A stretch of 49,145 bases of DNA, taken from NCBI GenBank assembly GCA_017549405.1, contig JAFYUY010000027.1, forward strand, positions 1 to 49,145, in the 5' to 3' direction. The position numbers and the translations under genes are program-made. Origin of the DNA: Clostridia bacterium. Its GTDB lineage: Bacteria; Bacillota; Clostridia; Oscillospirales; CAG-382. The notes beneath the pieces were generated by a model that was not told the origin of the DNA, did not search any database, and saw nothing but the letters and a program-made list of their open reading frames with translations. Shown piece by piece: positions 1-23,464 of this stretch. Each line of letters begins with the position of its first letter. Positions within the stretch are counted from its first letter, which is position 1.

Positions 1-151
1 ACATTTTTGAATGGTATAACGGAGGTATTTCTAATGAAAAAAAGAATACTAAGATTGATGAATCTACATATAAAAACCTGCTCAACAAATGCGGAACTAT
101 AAGAAGAAAACTTATTGCTTCTGTTACTACTGCAAAAGGAGGAAATATTAA

Positions 152-421
152 ATGAAATTAAGTTTCAGTTTAAAAAATAAAGAGGCAAGTTTTGAAGCAG
201 ATGTGGAAGGACTTGTAGAAAAAAGTATAGAAAACAAAGCGAAAAATCCAGTAAAGAAAACACGCTATCAGCTCAAGCAAGAAGAAGAAAAAAGAAGAAA
301 TGAAGAACTGAAACATAAACAAGAAATGCAGAAAATATATATTTGTTTAGGTATTGTAAGTGTTGTTATTACTATTTGTATAGTTATGGCTATTTTATCT
401 AATGTTTTTGGTTGGGCATAA
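152..421 (+). CDS. hypothetical small protein with C-terminal transmembrane helix
   Basis: 89-aa ORF with SD aaaggagg about 8 nt upstream of the ATG. The N-terminal half is Lys/Glu-rich and the C-terminus is hydrophobic (IYICLGIVSVVITICIVMAILSNVFGW). No family recognised. Confidence 0.45.
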   Translation: MKLSFSLKNKEASFEADVEGLVEKSIENKAKNPVKKTRYQLKQEEEKRRNEELKHKQEMQKIYICLGIVSVVITICIVMAILSNVFGWA

Positions 422-489
422 ATCCATAGTGTAGTTGAATACGAACAAAACATGTGGAATCCGTTGCACTTTTGGTGCAATCGGATTCA

Positions 490-570
490 GCGATATAAAT
501 GCTGTCACATTTGCGATATATACTAAGTATGCGATATATTACTTCGTAGTGCGATATGTCCCTTCGGGAC
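490..570 (+). repeat. tandem array: invariant word GCGATAT x4, each followed by a different short palindromic hairpin
   Basis: Read directly: GCGATAT-aaatgCTGTCAcattt, GCGATAT-atacTAAgtat, GCGATAT-attacTTCgtagt, GCGATAT-gtcccTTCgggac. A 13-bp-stem hairpin at 457-488 (gaatccgttgcac/gtgcaatcggattc) precedes it. Confidence 0.8.
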
Positions 571-1237: not shown

Positions 1238-1406
1238 ATGATGTTTGCCTTCGGCAAATGATGTTGGCTTCGCCAATGATGACGGCTTCGCCTAATGATG
1301 TGTAGCTTCGCCACATTTTATGGCAAACATCGCATCATTGCGAGTAAAACGAGCAACATCATATTTGCGGAGCAAATGCATCATATCGCCTGCGGCGATG
1401 CTTCAT
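1238..1406 (+). repeat. composite tandem array: word ATGATG x4 then inverted word CATCAT x3-4, each separated by variable hairpins
   Basis: ATGATG-tttgccTTCggcaa, ATGATG-ttggcTTCgccaa, ATGATG-acggcTTCgcct, ATGATG-tgtagcTTCgccaca. The polarity then flips: CATCAT-..., CATCAT-atttgcGGAgcaaat, CATCAT-atcgccTGCggcgat, CTTCAT. Confidence 0.75.
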
Positions 1407-2677: not shown

Positions 2678-4366
2678 ATGGTAAACGCGCAAATAGTTGA
2701 TTCAATGACAGAAGTCCTTATTTCGGGCAAATTTCCCGAAAAAAATCTTTCTTCGATCACCGTATGCCGTAATCAGACGGCAAATTTTCAGCTTGCATTC
2801 GGAATTACGGACGGAAGTGAAAAAAGCAAGAACTTTTACGTAAGGGTGGAAACATCACTTCCCCTAAGCCTTTATTACGTAAACAACGTGCCCGTTATAC
2901 ACACTTCATCTGCGGATACAAACGTTTCGCCCGGACTTTACCCCGATATGCTGCTTGAAAAGAGCATAAATCCTCCCCTTTCCGACAATTCCGCGCCCCC
3001 TTTCGGAAAATTCATGGCGGAGGACAACGAAAAAGTTCTTCTGCGTGCCTATGACGACAGCCCGCAGGCTTTATGGTTCTGCATAAACGAGCACGAAAAA
3101 ACACTGAAGCCCGGCAACTACCCCATTGATATTCGTATTTTTGACAGAGCAGAAACACTTCAGTGCACCGCTCACCTTGATGTGTGCGTGTTGGACAAAA
3201 AGCTCCCCGCACAGAAGATCACATACACCAACTGGTTCCACCACGACTGCCTTTGCGACACCTACGGTGTGGAGGTCTTTTCCGACAGATATTTTGAGAT
3301 CATGGCGGATTACGTGGAAAAAGCCGCACGAAACGGCATGAATATGATACTTCTGCCCGCTTTCACACCGCCCCTTGATACAGGCATCGGCCGTGAGAGA
3401 ATGACGGTGCAGCTTGTGAAAGTGACAAAAAACGGCAAAGAATACTCCTTTGATTTTTCCCTGATGAAAAAATTTATTGATATCTGCAGAAAATGCGGTA
3501 TCAAAAAGTTTGAACACTGCCATCTGTTCACCCAGTGGGGCGCAAAAAGCGCACCGAAAATAATGGTGCACGAAAACGGAAAGTATAAAAACGCTTTCGG
3601 CTGGAAAGCAAAAGCGTCAGGTAAAGCATATGTTTCGTTTTTGAATCAGTATCTTCCCGCATTAAAGGAATTTCTTATAAAAGAAAAGCTTGAAAAGAGC
3701 ATAATGTTCCACATCTCCGACGAGCCCGACAGCACCATGCTTGAGGACTACGCAAAAGCGCGCGGCGCCGTGCAGAAGCATCTTGACGGATTTACCGTGG
3801 GAGATGCCATGAGCCATGTGGAATATTACGAGCGCGGATTTTGCAAGACCCCCATTTCCGACATTCCGACCGTCCACGATTTTATAGGAAAATGCCCCGG
3901 ACTCTGGGCATATTACACGGGCGGCTCATCCATGAACGGCAGAAGCAGCAGAGTGCTCACCGTGCCGAGATACCGCAACAGAATGCTGGGAATTCAGATG
4001 TGGTATTACGGAATATCCGGATTTTTGCACTGGGGCTACAACAATTATTACGGCGAGCAGAGCAAATATCTTTTCAACCCCGCAACAAATACCAACGGCG
4101 GATTTTCACTCCCCGGCACTTCATATATAGTTTACCCCGCCTTTGACGGCACATGCATACAGTCCGTGCGCCAGAAGATCTTTGCCGAAGGTCTTTGCGA
4201 TATCCGCCTGCTCACTCTTGCGGAAAAGCTTTGCGGAAGAGATGCCTGCGAAAAGCTGATAGAAAAACACTTCAGTGTTCCTCATTTCGATAAGACCCCC
4301 GAAAACGCAGATACATTCCGTGCTTTTACAAAGGAAATATATGAAATGATAAAAAAAGTGGAATAA
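2678..4366 (+). CDS. DUF4091-type glycoside-hydrolase-like protein, cytoplasmic
   Basis: ATG at 2678 after aagagg. WFHHDCLCDTYGVEVFSDRYFEIMADYVEKAARNGMNMILLPAFTPPLD resembles the DUF4091/GH123-like core. No signal peptide. The family call is from memory only. Confidence 0.65.
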   Translation: MVNAQIVDSMTEVLISGKFPEKNLSSITVCRNQTANFQLAFGITDGSEKSKNFYVRVETSLPLSLYYVNNVPVIHTSSADTNVSPGLYPDMLLEKSINPPLSDNSAPPFGKFMAEDNEKVLLRAYDDSPQALWFCINEHEKTLKPGNYPIDIRIFDRAETLQCTAHLDVCVLDKKLPAQKITYTNWFHHDCLCDTYGVEVFSDRYFEIMADYVEKAARNGMNMILLPAFTPPLDTGIGRERMTVQLVKVTKNGKEYSFDFSLMKKFIDICRKCGIKKFEHCHLFTQWGAKSAPKIMVHENGKYKNAFGWKAKASGKAYVSFLNQYLPALKEFLIKEKLEKSIMFHISDEPDSTMLEDYAKARGAVQKHLDGFTVGDAMSHVEYYERGFCKTPISDIPTVHDFIGKCPGLWAYYTGGSSMNGRSSRVLTVPRYRNRMLGIQMWYYGISGFLHWGYNNYYGEQSKYLFNPATNTNGGFSLPGTSYIVYPAFDGTCIQSVRQKIFAEGLCDIRLLTLAEKLCGRDACEKLIEKHFSVPHFDKTPENADTFRAFTKEIYEMIKKVE

Positions 4367-4378
4367 AAACGTAAAATT

Positions 4379-4906
4379 ATGGAAAATCAATCCCGCTTGC
4401 CTGCAAGGAAAAATAACCGTCTTAAAGATTATGACTACAGTTCTTGCGGTGCATATTTTATAACTATATGCACAAAAGACAAAAAATGCATATTTTGGAA
4501 AAAAGAGCAGAACGGTTTTGTAGGGGAGGATATTATCCTCCCGCAAAACTGTATAGAATTATCGCCTTATGGAAAAATTGCAGATAATGCGATAAATGCA
4601 ATTCCTCTTCATTATCAAAACATAGAATTATTGCAATATGTCATAATGCCCAATCACATACACCTTATATTATTTATTCCGTATAATAACGGGAAGATGA
4701 TATCTTCCCCTACAATACGAAAATCTGTTTTGACAGCAGTGGGACAGATGAAACGGCATGTTTCAAAGGCAATAGGTCAACCCATTTGGCAAAAATCCTT
4801 TCACGACCATATCATACGCAACGGCAGTGATTATGAAAAAATAGCCAAATACATATATGAAAATCCGATAAAATGGCATTGCGACTGTTTTTATACAGAA
4901 CAATAA
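4379..4906 (+). CDS. IS200/IS605-family Y1 (HUH) transposase-like protein of the REP-associated (RAYT) type
   Basis: RLKDYDYSSCGAYFITICTKD, HUH motif in MPNHIHLIL, and WQKSFHDHIIRNGSDYEKIAKYIYENPIKW. Single gene with no tnpB or IS ends visible. Confidence 0.8.
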   Translation: MENQSRLPARKNNRLKDYDYSSCGAYFITICTKDKKCIFWKKEQNGFVGEDIILPQNCIELSPYGKIADNAINAIPLHYQNIELLQYVIMPNHIHLILFIPYNNGKMISSPTIRKSVLTAVGQMKRHVSKAIGQPIWQKSFHDHIIRNGSDYEKIAKYIYENPIKWHCDCFYTEQ

Positions 4907-10923: not shown

Positions 10924-11595
10924 TCACTTACCGTAATATTTGTCAAAATATGTGTCTTCGTCCACAAGGGTATAATCGGCAGGTATTTCAAGCCATCCCT
11001 CGGGGATATCTGCGGAAAATACCGCCACATCACGTTCGATGCGGGAGGATTCGTCATAATCCACAATGGCATAAAGACTGCCGTCGGTATCGGTAAAAAG
11101 TTTTACTCCGCAAGCTCTGCCGTCATAGGTCTCGCAGGAAAAATCCTCATAAAAGCAGGTCTTTCCCGTGGAAAGAACCTCTTCTCCGTTGCCGATAAAT
11201 TTTGCCGATGAATAGTTTATGACACTTCTAAGACCGCCATCGGTCGCATCTGCTTTAAAATATACCTTGTGACTGTCGTCAAGAAAGAATGTCTCTCCAT
11301 CACGGGAAAGGGTGTGGGAAACACTGCCGTTATAATTTGAACGGCTCTCTATCACCCCGTCCGCCATGGCGACCGTGTTGTATATGAGCATACCGTTTGC
11401 AAACATGGAGATATCAAGATAATAGTGCTCGTCGGAAAGCGCCTTGAGATATGGCGAACATACAAGTTCACCGCCAATGGGTTTTACCGTTGTGTCCTCA
11501 AAGTCGTGCTCTTTTCCGCAGGAACACATAATAAGACCGCACGCAAGTAACAACGCACTCAGTTTTCTGATCTTTGAGATAAGTGTTTTTTTCAT
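10924..11595 (-). CDS. putative lipoprotein, function unknown
   Basis: True start is MKKTLISKIRKLSALLLACGLIMCSCGKE (signal peptide with a lipobox-like Cys). The upstream 67 codons of the track ORF are read-through of the hairpin array. Confidence 0.7.
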   Translation of the reverse strand: MKKTLISKIRKLSALLLACGLIMCSCGKEHDFEDTTVKPIGGELVCSPYLKALSDEHYYLDISMFANGMLIYNTVAMADGVIESRSNYNGSVSHTLSRDGETFFLDDSHKVYFKADATDGGLRSVINYSSAKFIGNGEEVLSTGKTCFYEDFSCETYDGRACGVKLFTDTDGSLYAIVDYDESSRIERDVAVFSADIPEGWLEIPADYTLVDEDTYFDKYYGK

Positions 11596-11626
11596 GTTTA
11601 TGGATGTCCTTTCGCCATAGGTGTGT

Positions 11627-11875
11627 AATTTAGCTGCCGAAGGCAATTTAGCTGCCGAAGGCAATTTAGCTGCACCGAAGGTGCAATTTAGCTGACCGAA
11701 GGTCAATTTAGCTCGCCGCAAGGCGAATTTAGCTCGCCGCAAGGCGAATTTAGCTGACCGAAGGCAATTTAGCTGCCGAAGGCAATTTAGCTGCACCGAA
11801 GGTGCAATTTAGCTGACCGAAGGTCAATTTAGCTGCACCGAAGGTGCAATTTAGCTGACCAAAGGTCAATTTAGC
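11627..11875 (-). repeat. tandem array: invariant word GCTAAAT (plus strand reads ATTTAGC) x13 alternating with 12 short palindromic hairpins
   Basis: Counted by hand. Unit lengths are 18-22 bp. Hairpins come from a few alleles (sense orientation): tgccTTCggca x3, tgaccTTCggtca x2, tgcaccTTCggtgca x3, tcgccTTGCggcga x2, tgaccTTTggtca x1, and one hybrid tgccTTCggtca. Confidence 0.9.
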
Positions 11876-11879
11876 TCTC

Positions 11880-13706
11880 TCATCTGCCGACACAGACCGC
11901 TTTCAGAAGTTCACTTTTTTTGTTTTCTGTTCTTCCGGAAAGGGCATCAATGAGAAGCGCATCAAGGGTATTTCCGATATCCTTTCCGCAAAGCCCCAAA
12001 GCCGCAAGGTCGTTACCTGATATATCGAGCTGTTTTATGCTTTTCGGAATTTCAGGATTTGCGAAAATATCCTCAAAAAGAGCAGATTTTCCGAAAATCT
12101 CAAGATATTTTTCGAAAAATTCCCCGTATTTTGCAATAAGCTCTATTCCCTTTTCTCTTTGGATATCTTCCGCACCCTCAAGGGTATCGAAGATATCCTT
12201 GAATTGCAGAATATCCTTTTGCTCAGCTCCAGAAAGCTTCATTTCGCAAAGCAGTTTTTTAATATCCTCTGCCCTGAAAAAACGAAGAAGATAAAACATC
12301 CGGCAGGTGAAAACGGGGGGAACCGCATCTATGCCGTTTCCCGAAAAATTTCCCACAATTTCCGAAAAAACTTCGGGAAATTCCCTCAAAACACCGAAAA
12401 CACGGGCACAAACAAGGATTTTTCGCAATTCTTCGCTCTTTCTCTCCGCAGAAATGTGGGAAAGTAAGTGAGCGTTTTTTGTTATCGATGCGGCAGTTTC
12501 GGGGGAAATGTCAAACCCCAGACGCACGGCAAAGCGCAGAGCACGGAGTATTCTCAGAGCGTCCTCGTAAAATCTTGTGTCGGGATGCCCCACGCATTTT
12601 ATCACATGGTTTGAGATGTCTGAAAGTCCGTCGAAATTATCGGTAAGGAATATATTTTTGCCGTCAAAGGTAAGCGCCAAGGCATTCACCGTAAAATCAC
12701 GGCGGGAAAGGTCTTCTTTAATATCCTTGACAAACACTACCTCTGACGGATGGCGGTGATCGTTGTATGCCCCCTCGGCACGGTATGGGGTGATTTCCGC
12801 CTCACACTCTCCGTATTTTAAAAGCACAGTACCGCAGCTTCCGCCCACAAGTGTTGCCTGCGCACCGCAAGAATCTGCGGCAGAGATTATTTCATCGCTC
12901 GATGCGTTTGTGGTAATGTCAAAATCATGGGGAGCAATTCCCATAAGATAATCACGCACACAGCCTCCCACAAAATGGGCACTGTACCCGCTCTTTATTA
13001 AAATTTCAAGGATCTTCAGCACATCTTCAGGGAAAAAATCAAAAAATTCCGCATCGGGAAGCACTCCACCTGCGGTATCCTCCGCAAAGGTCTGCTCACA
13101 AAGCTTGCAAAGGTCGGCATATTCCACCCCAAGCATCTCGAATGCCGAAAGCATGGCATTTGCCGTAAGGTCACATGGAAGCTCAAGCTTTTTAAGAATC
13201 TTCTCACGCTTTTCGGCACTGTCATTCTGCCCCGAAAGTCCGAGTGAATAAAGCTGGGCTTTTGTTACGGGCACGGCACTTTTTCCGTCAGGGTCCTCCG
13301 TAAGTCCCGCCCGTGCAAAAACCTCGCGCAGAGTATCGGGACTCATACCCTCAACGCCCAAAAAACCGTCCTTTGAATACTGAGTTTTTCTTTTTTCCTT
13401 TCCTCGTATCTGCGGAATATATATATTTTTCACCTTGCCCGCAGGAAGCATACCTTTAAGCTTTGAGCGGATAAATCCTCCCGCTCTGTCGCTATCGGTA
13501 ATTATCACAAGGCCGCGCGCCTCGCACAACTTGCGGAGCATGGCTTTTTTCTGAGAATTGTTAAAAACGGAAAAACCGTCGGTGGTAAATATCTGCGCAT
13601 CAAGAACCGAGGAAAGCTTTATTTTATCGTATTTTCCCTCGCACAGAACGGCGCAGTTGAGTTTTATTTTTTTCAGATCACTTTCCTCCTTTCTTTGAAT
13701 GTGCAA
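11880..13706 (-). CDS. cca: fusion protein: N-terminal Toprim/DUF4093 (RNase M5-like) domain plus CCA-adding tRNA nucleotidyltransferase
   Basis: N-terminal 200 aa: VLCEGKYDKIKL...LVIITDSDRAGGFIRSKLKG (Toprim E...DxD). From about aa 220: FVGGCVRDYLMGIAPHDFDITT plus RRDFTVNA (PolyA-pol/CCA head). Start uncertain: TTG at 13706, with a GGAGG just inside. Confidence 0.85.
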   Translation of the reverse strand: MHIQRKEESDLKKIKLNCAVLCEGKYDKIKLSSVLDAQIFTTDGFSVFNNSQKKAMLRKLCEARGLVIITDSDRAGGFIRSKLKGMLPAGKVKNIYIPQIRGKEKRKTQYSKDGFLGVEGMSPDTLREVFARAGLTEDPDGKSAVPVTKAQLYSLGLSGQNDSAEKREKILKKLELPCDLTANAMLSAFEMLGVEYADLCKLCEQTFAEDTAGGVLPDAEFFDFFPEDVLKILEILIKSGYSAHFVGGCVRDYLMGIAPHDFDITTNASSDEIISAADSCGAQATLVGGSCGTVLLKYGECEAEITPYRAEGAYNDHRHPSEVVFVKDIKEDLSRRDFTVNALALTFDGKNIFLTDNFDGLSDISNHVIKCVGHPDTRFYEDALRILRALRFAVRLGFDISPETAASITKNAHLLSHISAERKSEELRKILVCARVFGVLREFPEVFSEIVGNFSGNGIDAVPPVFTCRMFYLLRFFRAEDIKKLLCEMKLSGAEQKDILQFKDIFDTLEGAEDIQREKGIELIAKYGEFFEKYLEIFGKSALFEDIFANPEIPKSIKQLDISGNDLAALGLCGKDIGNTLDALLIDALSGRTENKKSELLKAVCVGR

Positions 13707-13714
13707 AAGTAAAA

Positions 13715-15406
13715 TCAGCTTTTAATATCGGCACAAAATTCAGATGCCTCAAAATACCCGCACGCAGTTCCGAATTTTTCACCGTTTATGAGCTTTTGTC
13801 TGTAAAGCCGCATAACACGTGTGGTATCGGGAAGCTCCATGGGTTTTTCAAGGTCTGCGTTTCCGAATATGTGGCGCAGAAATTCCTTTTCTTCGTCGTA
13901 ATATTCCGAAAAGATTTTAAAATCCGCACGGAATGAATTTATGTTACACTTCCCGAGCGCCTCGTTATCGTGGCACAAAAGCCAGCTTTCGCAGGCAAAA
14001 ACAAGCTTTTTAACACCGAATTTTTTTGAAAAGAATTCGTATGCTCTTTTATAAGATGTGTATCTTGCGCCGTCCGAAAGATCGCACCCATGCGGTGCAT
14101 GAAGCTTTATGATAAGGTCGCCCTCACAAAGACCGGGGATACCTAAGAACGTGTTTCCGCAGGGCTCAAACTCAAAAGAGCCTATTTTAAAGACCGCACC
14201 GCAAAGGTTCCGGACACAGAATCTGTAATCGGAAAGACCTGTCTTTCCCGAAGCTTTAAAATACTCCCTCGCTCGGTCAAAAACAGCGTTCAGGGTATCG
14301 GAAATTATTTCTCTTTCAACACAAAGCTTTTGCAAAAAGCTTATGGCATACGGCAAAAGACGGGTATAGGTGTCAAGGAAAAATCTTTCCTTGTCTTGAT
14401 ATTTTTCGCTCTCGCAAAGCAAAGTCTTGAAAAACTCAGATGCAAAAAACTCTTTATAAAAGGGAAAATCATTTATATTACTGTGGGGTATGTTCTTCAA
14501 ATGTTCTTCAAGAGAGCGGATAAATGCGGAAAATTTCGCATTTTTTTTGGGAAATGTGTAAAAAGGCAAATTAGCGGCTCTCTCGTTATTGATTTTGCCG
14601 TCGCAATCTGTTATAATATACTTGATCACGGCATTGCGCAAAATAACATCCTTACCGCGCCAGGAATACGCACGGCGGGAAAATTCCCCGTCATCCATGC
14701 CGTAAATATCGGAAACCGAAAGATACGGAACACGGTCTTTTTTGAAAAATTCAATGGGAGTGCTTTGCGAATTCTTGTTATGGGGGCATACCTCCTGGCA
14801 GATATCGCATCCCCACAAAAGGCCGTGGGTGAGAATTTTTTCATTTTCCTCCGGAGAAAGCTCTTTTTTCTGAGTAACGGCAGATACACATTCTTCTCCC
14901 TTCGCAGGGCATGATGATCTGCATCTTCCGCATCCGTCACAGCTTTTAAGTAAGGGTGAGGGCTCGTTCCGAAGATCATAAATATTTTCGGAATCGGTAA
15001 CTATTTCCGCCACAAAAACATAGCTTCCGTATTTTCCGTTTATTATAATTCCGTTTTTTCCAACAGTACCAAGTCCGCAAATAAGCGCAAGACTTCTTTC
15101 GTCAAAGGGCGATGTATCGGCAAAAATTTCGGTCTTAACATCAATATCCGCATTTTTAAGGAATCTCTTCAGTTCTTCCGAAAGCTCCTTAACGTAAAAA
15201 TGATAATCCCTCGGGACGGCATAGGCGGAAATATTTCTTTTTTCCCCTTTTACGTTATAGGGAATGAGAAACACCACGGCACTCTTTGCCCATTCGGGAA
15301 GTCTTCCGGGAGCGGTTATAAGCTCTTTCGGCAAAGAAGCTATACTGCAGGCGGAAAAAAATTCTATATTCTGAGCTTTTAAAAAAGATAAAAATATTTC
15401 TTTCAT
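13715..15406 (-). CDS. queG: fusion protein: epoxyqueuosine reductase (QueG-like, 2x4Fe-4S) plus a C-terminal acyltransferase-like (NAT_N/GNAT_C-like) domain
   Basis: N-terminal 265 aa contain CDGCGRCRSSCP and CDICQEVCPHN ferredoxin motifs in a QueG-like context. The C-terminal 300 aa (LHAPHGCDLSDGARYTSYKRAYEFF...) resemble the N-acyltransferase N-domain plus GNAT-like C-domain family; that call is from memory. Confidence 0.75.
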   Translation of the reverse strand: MKEIFLSFLKAQNIEFFSACSIASLPKELITAPGRLPEWAKSAVVFLIPYNVKGEKRNISAYAVPRDYHFYVKELSEELKRFLKNADIDVKTEIFADTSPFDERSLALICGLGTVGKNGIIINGKYGSYVFVAEIVTDSENIYDLRNEPSPLLKSCDGCGRCRSSCPAKGEECVSAVTQKKELSPEENEKILTHGLLWGCDICQEVCPHNKNSQSTPIEFFKKDRVPYLSVSDIYGMDDGEFSRRAYSWRGKDVILRNAVIKYIITDCDGKINNERAANLPFYTFPKKNAKFSAFIRSLEEHLKNIPHSNINDFPFYKEFFASEFFKTLLCESEKYQDKERFFLDTYTRLLPYAISFLQKLCVEREIISDTLNAVFDRAREYFKASGKTGLSDYRFCVRNLCGAVFKIGSFEFEPCGNTFLGIPGLCEGDLIIKLHAPHGCDLSDGARYTSYKRAYEFFSKKFGVKKLVFACESWLLCHDNEALGKCNINSFRADFKIFSEYYDEEKEFLRHIFGNADLEKPMELPDTTRVMRLYRQKLINGEKFGTACGYFEASEFCADIKS

Positions 15407-21151: not shown

Positions 21152-23269
<2,118 letters not shown>

Positions 23270-23282
23270 GCGGATTCGGGAA

Positions 23283-23464
23283 GCTAATTGCACCTGCGGT
23301 GCGGCTAAATTGACCTTCGGTCAGCTAAATTGACCTTTGGTCAGCTAAATTGCACCTTCGGTGCAGCTAAATTAACCTTCGGTCAGCTAAATTTGCCTTC
23401 GGCAAGCTAAATTGACCTTTGGTCAGCTAAATTGACCTTCGGCAGATAAATGCACTTTGTGCAT
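23283..23464 (+). repeat. tandem array: invariant word GCTAAAT (7 exact plus 2 degenerate copies) alternating with 9 short palindromic hairpins
   Basis: GCTAAT-tgcaccTGCggtgcg, then GCTAAAT followed by tgaccTTCggtca, tgaccTTTggtca, tgcaccTTCggtgca, taaccTTCggtca, ttgccTTCggcaa, tgaccTTTggtca, tgaccTTCggca, then ATAAAT-gcacTTTgtgc. Uses the same word and hairpin alleles as the array at 11627-11875, on the opposite strand. Confidence 0.9.

Follow-up and report, generated by a model that had tools for sequence, protein, structure and literature searches.

A long GCTAAAT hairpin array near a clostridial replication origin is an amplified word-variant of the Gut-1-like interspersed hairpin repeats

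What kind of element is a run of mini-hairpins that are all separated by the same seven-nucleotide word, and what could it do between two genes? This question is raised by a stretch of 49,145 nt (the window; contig JAFYUY010000027.1 of assembly GCA_017549405.1) from a Clostridia bacterium of the order Oscillospirales (CAG-382). Its positions 11627-11875 are occupied by copies of the word GCTAAAT on the minus strand with 12 short hairpins between them, and this array lies between a gene encoding a CCA-adding enzyme-like fusion protein (cca fusion) and the open reading frame (ORF) of a lipoprotein-like protein. The original prediction had regarded the array as an inverse-CRISPR-like architecture and had not recognised it as a described class of repeats. 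The analysis reported here leads to another answer: the array belongs to the Gut-1-like interspersed hairpin repeats, among which it represents an unusually amplified new word-variant. We consider it to be, on balance, the solo and tandemly amplified forward arm of a dispersed modular element, which is most likely transcribed.

The alternation of a constant word with 12 hairpins is confirmed. The word GCTAAATT is present in 13 exact copies on the minus strand, and Tandem Repeats Finder describes the array with a period of 21 nt (12.6 copies, score 295). In the whole window, 21 matches to GCTAAATT were observed versus 4.15 expected, and none of 100 shuffles reached 21. Read in the sense orientation, segments 1 to 6 are TGACCTTTGGTCA, TGCACCTTCGGTGCA, TGACCTTCGGTCA, TGCACCTTCGGTGCA, TGCCTTCGGCA and TGCCTTCGGTCA, which are followed by two copies of TCGCCTTGCGGCGA, then TGACCTTCGGTCA, TGCACCTTCGGTGCA and two copies of TGCCTTCGGCA as segments 7 to 12. 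Eleven of these segments are perfect palindromes of 11-15 nt with stems of GCC, GACC, GCACC or CGCC and with TTC, TTT or TTGC as the loop; the twelfth, TGCCTTCGGTCA, is an imperfect hybrid of two unit types. As T is the first and A the last letter of each hairpin, the constant part is effectively A-GCTAAAT-T. The linker is indeed invariant within the array and reads GCUAAAU in all exact copies, 13 here and seven in a second array of the window; however, it is longer than the seven nucleotides initially noted, and it is only one of at least six words that build this architecture.

All units of the array are in direct orientation, and its stems vary while the linker is constant. No more than four to five unit types are used, with TGACCTTCGGTCA as the commonest, and the block GACC-GCACC-GCC-GCC occurs a second time six units (121 nt) further on. 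Accordingly, Tandem Repeats Finder reports a second, higher-order period of 121 nt (2.1 copies, 90% matches). The proposed shuffling and duplication of units is borne out by this higher-order repeat and by a related element, described below, in which two units were lost between identical hairpins. The amplification of the array can be read from these features: the 121-nt repeat, the small number of unit types and a strain difference of two units in the related element.

The architecture turned out to be already catalogued. A sensitive Rfam scan matches both GCTAAAT arrays of the window to Gut-1 (RF01706) over the full length of the model, with E-values of 1e-5 to 3e-4. The scores of 36.5 and 30.8 bits (first array) and 34.9 and 31.6 bits (second array) stay below the curated cut-off of 50 bits, and at the gathering level a scan of the whole window returns a tRNA-Leu only and no Gut-1. 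In the alignments to the model, every hairpin and every linker of the arrays is in register. The statement that this is not a described repeat class can thus not be upheld, since the arrays match Gut-1 in architecture with an E-value of about 1e-5, albeit below the cut-off; it is the GCTAAAT word-variant that the Rfam model does not capture. Gut-1 was found in human-gut metagenomes, but in no sequenced organism, and was proposed to be a likely non-coding RNA of the small RNA (sRNA) type (Weinberg et al. 2010, PMC2864571); besides this study, no literature on Gut-1 or RF01706 was found. The Gut-1 consensus consists of three hairpins with CCUUCGG-like tops and GUGAAAU between them, and in the published seed alignment the hairpins stand behind a terminator-like hairpin, and in many cases an inverted array that carries the complementary word comes next. 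With the GCTAAAT family it shares the tandem of at least three short hairpins with such tops, the invariant A/U-rich linker, a usual number of three hairpins, the position downstream of a gene or terminator, typically after a terminator-like hairpin past the stop codon, the frequent inverted complementary array and the occurrence in gut microbiomes. The differences lie in the word, which is GCUAAAU here and GUGAAAU or GUGAUAU in Gut-1, in the 12 and about eight hairpins of the two window arrays compared to three, and in the description of Gut-1 as a stand-alone sRNA, whereas the arrays analyzed here belong to a word-variant of a dispersed modular element that is tied to a protein gene. A true Gut-1 match was obtained in locus L066 from a MAG (metagenome-assembled genome) of the Oscillospiraceae, in which a GTGAAAT array passes the cut-off with 51.4 bits; on this basis, organisms of this group can now be named as carriers of Gut-1 proper. 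In the same locus, the GTGAAAT array (3623-3706, minus strand) and a GCTAAAT array (3477-3543, plus strand) are located less than 200 nt apart.

An exact-pattern scan for three GCTAAATT words with gaps of 9-16 nt, using one genome per species, yielded at least 119 loci. The statistics on segments, loops, covariation and orientation given in the following rest on the loci among the matches listed. Nearly all of the 119 or more loci stem from rumen or gut Clostridia MAGs (Oscillospiraceae, Ruminococcus, Acutalibacteraceae, Faecousia), often with several per MAG, and about a dozen listed matches in other phyla are ordinary tandem repeats. Locus L054, which stems from the cultured Ruminococcus sp. 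JL13D9 (NZ_CP162392.1), also holds a GCTAAAT array. Of the 242 distinct inter-word segments of the Clostridia, 184 form perfect hairpins, and 229 have T as the first and A as the last letter. The usual element has four words and three hairpins, and the arrays of the window are the longest true arrays among the matches listed. Certain hairpin triplets recur across many MAGs, for example TCGC..GCGA / TGAACAAGTTCA / TGCCTGCGGCA. Elements of the family are 85-93% identical to one another while their flanks differ, which fits a dispersed, mobile-like repeat. Viral contigs served as a control, in which 35 of 37 pattern matches are ordinary tandem repeats with identical, non-palindromic spacers and only L145 and L153 carry true hairpin arrays. 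A link of the arrays to phages was rejected for this reason.

The family has a preferred position and orientation. Among arrays in which no inverted partner was detected, 42 have the same orientation as the nearest upstream ORF and 10 the opposite one (p = 9e-6), with a median distance of 80 nt from its stop codon. Relative to the downstream ORF, 11 arrays are co-oriented and 15 opposed. Many copies start directly behind a genuine terminator, in some cases that of a tRNA gene, or behind a long hairpin. Arrays directly behind tRNA genes or their terminators were seen in L024, L036, L010 and L172.

The pairing of the hairpins is maintained by compensated changes across the family. In 58 distinct hairpins of 13 nt, 95.5% of the cells pair, compared to 59% in shuffles and 19-41% in slid controls, and 100 doubly changed cells were counted versus 31 in shuffles. 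The covariation score of 0.872 (0.176 in shuffles) was not equalled by any of 500 shuffles. The idea that compensated stems reflect selection on the hairpin is thereby supported at the level of the family; within the single array from which it was derived, however, compensation is weak evidence, because the four to five stem types of this array copy unit types that are common elsewhere in the family.

Many copies of the family consist of two arms. A forward arm with alternating word and hairpin (spacing of about 21, 19 and 18 nt) is followed by the centre GCTAnnnnnGCnAATTTA and by an inverted arm, which carries the complementary word and longer hairpins (spacing of about 25, 26 and 22 nt). In the complete element, a promoter is followed by a first hairpin, the forward arm (word plus hairpin, three to four times), the centre, the inverted arm, a ribosome-binding site (RBS) and a gene encoding an Avd-like four-helix-bundle protein of roughly 115-125 amino acids. 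The same layout was found with GTGAAAT, GTGATAT, GCGATAT, TCGATAT and ATGATG, each with its own complement in the second arm, and GCGATAT and ATGATG also occur in the window. Two-arm elements fold far more stably than shuffles (z = -7.6 and -6.2), and in the predicted fold the words of one arm pair with those of the other. Among the GCTAAAT loci listed, 10 have a gene of 114-124 amino acids that begins 23-97 nt past the last ATTTAGC (L021, L024, L034, L039, L045, L072, L087, L092, L111 and L118, with the copy in L045 cut by the contig end); remnants of the four-helix-bundle gene are present in L024 and L108. In three independent loci, the first word is preceded by a sigma-70-like promoter (10 of 12 matches, TATAAT), the end of which lies about 22 nt away. 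With a promoter directly upstream, the two-arm element is a 5' leader of about 200 nt of the mRNA of this gene, in which the forward arm carries the word as GCUAAAU. The inverted arm has a conserved, non-palindromic middle hairpin (L167 2420-2440, L199, L191, L174 and L182), which reads UAUGGAGCGAAGCGGAAUA or AACCGAAUGAGAUGAGGUU on the transcribed strand; with its short stem, purine-rich symmetric internal loop and GNA/GNRA-type top, it has the look of a specific RNA motif.

The units of the target array fit the description of the forward arm, as they combine the word with T...A-closed hairpins with TNC or TNNC loops, and TGACCTTCGGTCA is the fourth forward hairpin of the leaders in L167 and L199. 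An inverted arm, a promoter and the gene are absent, which makes it a solo arm. The number of units also varies in complete elements. In loci that encode the same clade-2 protein (P0322) downstream of a trmA-like gene, the forward arm has four words in some samples and two in others. The comparison of L174 and L180 with L176-L179, about 140-300 nt upstream of the gene, shows that two units disappeared between identical ATCCCTGCGGGAT hairpins; the two groups are also unlike in the coding sequence that lies further upstream.

The element-associated gene belongs to PF05635 (100 bits) and TIGR02436, 'four helix bundle protein' (115 bits). The solved relatives of its product are uncharacterised proteins with five chains per entry, and the PF05635 family has been reported to be homologous to Avd, a protein of the diversity-generating retroelements (DGRs), and to form five-bundle assemblies. 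The proteins fall into two clades that are 48% identical to each other. Searches started from the proteins returned 7994 clusters at E < 1e-10 for clade 1, the best 120 of which are all 85-100% identical and mostly on contigs of less than 1.5 kb, and 4385 clusters for clade 2; the best matches of both searches taken together are 78-100% identical and mostly lie on contigs of 0.5-1.5 kb. The short contigs probably result from assemblies that break in these repeats. Contig ends inside arrays were seen in L171, L173 and L186. In three further contexts (P0220, P0217 and P0197), clade-1 genes have a GCTAAAT/ATTTAGC element upstream, and in three others (P0322, P0317 and P0273) and in L087, a GCGATAT/ATATCGC element precedes clade-2 genes. 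Word and clade match in at least eight independent contexts, and there is no exception in either clade among the contexts fetched. No literature that links four-helix-bundle proteins to hairpin arrays or hairpin-array leaders was found.

In the lineage of the window, the array is an insertion. It fills the whole gap from the cca-fusion stop codon (11880-11882, 4 nt ahead of the first array word) to the RBS (AAAGGA, about 11607-11612) and ATG (11595-11593) of the lipoprotein-like ORF, and both genes are on the minus strand. Close relatives of the cca-fusion protein are lacking, and the nearest ones are 70%, 59% and 55% identical. In the closest relative (70% amino acid identity), the distance from the cca stop to the ATG of the orthologous lipoprotein gene is 18 nt, which hold the RBS only, and in the 59% relative the next gene begins 21 nt past the cca stop. 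The absence of the array between cca and the next gene in both relatives identifies it as a lineage-specific insertion. An identical 12-unit array is present in two other metagenome assemblies, ERZ28653764 and ERZ28653778, the latter of which differs from the window by one single-nucleotide polymorphism across 7.8 kb. A search of the metagenome collection with a 20-nt junction pattern (cca stop plus first word) gave five matches, all of them chance matches in unrelated DNA.

Taken together, we propose that the array is, more probably than any other single account, a solo and tandemly amplified forward arm of the dispersed modular element. The unit of such an arm is a short G+C-rich hairpin closed by T-A, which is followed by a constant A/U-rich word, here GCTAAAT. 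In this lineage, forward-arm units would have been inserted into the 18 nt between the cca and lipoprotein cistrons, and a second set into the spacer between gyrB and alaS. Growth to 12 and about eight units, respectively, would then have occurred by duplication and by unequal recombination or slippage between units. A transcript of the array would present 12 stable mini-hairpins in a row and 13 single-stranded GCUAAAU words. Neither strand of 11596-11885 holds a terminator-like site, the hairpins run into AGCUAAAUU and not directly into a U-tract, and a scan found no promoter-like site in or next to the array. Given the absence of both around the array and its sense orientation inside an apparent operon, co-transcription with the neighbouring genes is the simplest reading. 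REP (repetitive extragenic palindrome) hairpins in transcripts shield the upstream mRNA from 3' exonucleases. By analogy, the most likely effects of the array would be a barrier to RNA decay or processing between the cistrons, which would thereby be uncoupled, as in REP elements and BIMEs (bacterial interspersed mosaic elements), or a platform for a cognate factor; the element may also be largely selfish, without a function beyond its own persistence.

Several observations weigh against this proposal. Transcription of the array, which appears most likely, and any putative effect of it are deduced from the sequence context. Neither GCTAAAT array of the window adjoins an ATTTAGC (inverted) arm or a four-helix-bundle gene. 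The global minimum-free-energy fold of the solo array is only slightly more stable than that of shuffles (z = -2.2 in sense and -3.0 in antisense orientation); this fold is governed by alternative pairings among the repeated arms and does not report on the local hairpins. G-U pairs are nearly missing from the family hairpins (five of 290 cells), single mismatches on the GCTAAAT strand are more often A.C/C.A (20) than G.T/T.G (7), and the small numbers for short-type arrays on this strand (G.T 8 versus A.C 16) also point away from the signature of a sense RNA. The pairing and loop statistics consequently agree no better with a sense RNA than with a palindrome in the DNA or a folded opposite strand, and the sense RNA, which the original prediction had among the selected forms of the hairpin, is not singled out. 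Moreover, the polarities of transcription and replication are not cleanly separable at these loci.

A possible extension, compatible with the solo forward arm but clearly less probable, is that the array is a platform for a protein. In this case, the GCUAAAU words would be putative multivalent sites for a cognate pentameric Avd-like protein, the two-arm leader would serve as an autoregulatory site, and solo arrays would be extra targets or sponges that tie the mRNAs of neighbouring genes to the protein. Avd is a basic pentamer that works together with the reverse transcriptase and the DGR RNA. The platform is suggested by the one-to-one relation of word and clade despite only 48% identity between the clades, by the fact that all eight words of a module switch together between clades, by the transcription of the leader from a promoter directly upstream, and by the homology of PF05635 to DGR Avd with its assemblies of five four-helix bundles. 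However, joint inheritance of leader and gene as a single module accounts for the correlation with no need for binding, and the words of the composites are predicted to pair between the arms and need not be protein sites. In addition, the gene follows only about a quarter of the composites, and one GCGATAT composite in L167 precedes a Bro-N gene. The general form of this idea is more tentative still: Gut-1-type arrays as a whole would be putative cognate elements of stand-alone Avd-like pentamers, with one word per clade, hairpins that have a structural role only, leaders that autoregulate and amplified solo arms that act as targets or sponges.

A DNA-level element is a serious rival of the transcribed solo arm, although we consider it rather unlikely. 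Here, the palindromes or their single-stranded hairpins would be recognized by a recombinase or nuclease or would give rise to slippage or template switching, the spread would be selfish, and the perfect stems would be maintained through template switching within a strand, not through selection on an RNA. The nearly complete Watson-Crick pairing and the lack of a G.T excess over A.C described above speak for such a mechanism, and its standing as a serious rival rests on these statistics and on those of the loops. On the GCTAAAT strand, 52 of 77 triloops are TNC and 49 of 74 tetraloops TNNC, which corresponds to GNA and GNNA on the opposite, ATTTAGC strand, and read on that strand many hairpins contain GCGAAGC. 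Loops of the GNA and GNNA types are classic examples of very high stability, in DNA and RNA alike, and GCGAAGC is a very stable DNA mini-hairpin. The dispersed multi-copy nature, the contig breaks in arrays, the lineage-specific insertion and the variation in unit number between strains also agree with an element that acts as DNA, and, judged by the GC skew of the 8-kb loci, G is enriched on the GCTAAAT strand in 43 of 59 cases. Skew and upstream gene are concordant in 38 loci; the discordant ones, however, follow the gene in 11 and the skew in five cases. The word and the loops are strand-asymmetric, and the complete element sits between promoter and RBS and is hence transcribed. Furthermore, no transposase, RAYT (IS200/IS605-like TnpA) or recombinase gene was noticed beside the elements in the gene contexts of the 49-kb window and the 8-kb loci, and no target-site duplication was identified.

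Rfam and Weinberg et al. (2010) list Gut-1 as a likely sRNA, and a stand-alone sRNA gene with its own promoter and terminator would be in line with a seven-word array in L118 that begins about 17 nt downstream of an extended -10 sequence. For the target array this is improbable, since it has neither a promoter-like nor a terminator-like site and sits where the closest relative has a spacer of only 18 nt, and in L118 and the other promoter-bearing cases the transcript runs on into the protein gene. An assembly artefact, in which a repeat was collapsed or expanded, is less probable again. The assembly of SRR12529252 from the Logan collection breaks 49 nt into the array. All of these assemblies appear from their sources to be based on short reads, which are unable to settle how many units are present in an array of 249 bp with a higher-order period of 121 nt, and the precise count is thus without independent proof. 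Nevertheless, the identical array is present in three assemblies, two of which come from other samples, and the same architecture was found in more than 100 loci from many studies. Practically no credence is given to a CRISPR-like memory array with inverted roles of repeat and spacer, because beyond the formal alternation of constant and variable parts there are only 11-15-nt palindromes of few recurring types that are common to unrelated loci, a usual copy number of three, dispersal at gene 3' ends, no leader and no cas-like neighbourhood, the neighbours being cca, queG, rsmG, dnaA, gyrB and alaS. An array of terminators was rejected because 11596-11885 holds no terminator-like site, and a protein-coding repeat because units of 18-22 nt are not multiples of three; to our knowledge, the word does not match an operator or box that has been described.

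The comparison with other systems places the family beside several known repeats without equating it with any of them. Like REP, BIME and REPIN elements of Enterobacteria and Pseudomonas, it consists of multi-copy extragenic palindromes at gene 3' ends or in intercistronic positions, with clusters of variable units that are inserted or absent between relatives. It differs from them in its Clostridia hosts, in the lack of a GTAG head, in the units of the target array, which are all direct rather than alternating in orientation, and in a constant word between variable stems, while the stems of REP elements are conserved. With the BOX elements of Streptococcus pneumoniae (boxA-(boxB)n-boxC), which are transcribed with neighbouring genes, it has in common a modular intergenic structure with a variable number of a hairpin-forming module; its units are 18-22 nt long compared to 45 nt, the sequences are unrelated, and no protein gene is associated with BOX. 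The gene after the complete element shares its family, PF05635/TIGR02436, with Avd, the DGR accessory protein, and with the 23S rRNA intervening-sequence ORFs; members of this family are known to ride inside structured RNA insertions. In contrast to DGRs, the modules examined have no adjoining reverse transcriptase and no pair of template and variable repeats. From CRISPR arrays, which likewise alternate a constant with a variable part, the array is set apart by its 7-nt word and 11-15-nt palindromic 'spacers', as opposed to repeats of 23-47 nt and unique non-palindromic spacers of similar length, and by the lack of cas genes and a leader. The description as an inverse CRISPR is therefore a formal analogy only, given the few recurring hairpin types, the housekeeping neighbours and the dispersal at gene 3' ends.

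Gut-1 has been an orphan motif since 2010, and the array is now placed within a large superfamily of such modular repeats from gut and rumen Clostridia. The constant word comes in several 'alleles', which are always matched between both arms of a complete element. In its complete form, the element precedes an extremely abundant Avd-like gene as its transcribed leader, and this link is the most interesting by-product of the analysis; the findings thus bear on Gut-1 as well as on the function of stand-alone PF05635 proteins. The repeat class also appears to fragment assemblies of rumen and gut metagenomes. Should the Avd-like pentamers indeed read the words, amplified solo arms would link host operons to an abundant and apparently mobile module.

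Beyond the target array, a scan of the window for any 6-mer that recurs with a spacing of 14-30 nt gave 40 word chains, compared to at most two in shuffles, which reduce to four hairpin arrays (Table 1). The second GCTAAAT array is placed between the gyrB stop codon (23267-23269) and the alaS ATG (23529). The ATGATG composite begins directly behind the intrinsic terminator (1196-1236) of the tRNA-Leu gene (1109-1192); its fold has a z-score of -6.2 against shuffles, and its two arms pair in the prediction. The ORF that is cut by the window start has, in its last 28 amino acids, a weak match of 64% identity to the C-terminus of the GCGATAT-associated (clade-2) four-helix-bundle protein. The GCGATAT array lies downstream of this truncated clade-2-like ORF and of an 89-amino-acid membrane-like ORF (152-421). 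The window covers the replication origin region, with rsmG and dnaA at about 15.4-18 kb and the minimum of the cumulative GC skew at about 18-21 kb. The two GCTAAAT arrays flank this region (11.6 kb on the minus and 23.3 kb on the plus strand), and each is co-oriented with transcription and replication. Their inverted and roughly equidistant placement around the origin is probably a consequence of their co-orientation with genes and replication.

Table 1. Hairpin arrays and associated genes in the window, and complete modules in other loci.
Feature	Position	Strand	Remarks
Target array, 13 x GCTAAAT(T) words with 12 mini-hairpins between	11627..11875	-	sense orientation relative to flanking genes
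DUF4093 + PolyA_pol (CCA-adding enzyme-like) fusion gene	11880..13706	-	upstream of target array
Lipoprotein-like ORF	10924..11595	-	downstream of target array; signal peptide + Cys, no Pfam match
Second GCTAAAT array, 7 exact words + degenerate end units, ~8 hairpins	23275..23451	+	sense orientation
Composite element, 4 x ATGATG with hairpins, centre, 3 x CATCAT with hairpins	1238..1399	+	
Short GCGATAT array, long first hairpin, then 4 x GCGATAT separating hairpins	457..570 (words 490-570)	+	
3' end of ORF cut by window start	3..152	+	weak C-terminal match, no Pfam match on 50-aa fragment
Complete modules, clade 1	L167, L172, L191, L199		
Complete modules, clade 2	L087 5701-6230, L174-L181, L182-L189, L190		

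Some further observations concern the surroundings of the elements. At least two elements lie 300-600 nt apart around small genes or their remnants in L024 (5967-6397) and also in L056, L111, L118, L041 and L167. The paired elements enclose a four-helix-bundle gene, a 123-amino-acid membrane ORF or a Bro-N gene, which gives them a cassette-like look, and the words of neighbouring elements can differ. In L033, an RT-5 RNA (RF03026, 87.7 bits; 4385-4489, plus strand) is located about 2.2 kb from a six-word GCTAAAT array; it is the only reverse-transcriptase-related signal near any element among the matches listed. Upstream of the cca fusion, a queG-like gene (13715-15406, 563 amino acids) is present in the window as a single ORF, whereas the corresponding region of L121 (1301-2992) is split into two ORFs of 358 and 87 amino acids. 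Set against a single-base difference of the DNA over 7.8 kb, this split might represent a nonsense polymorphism.

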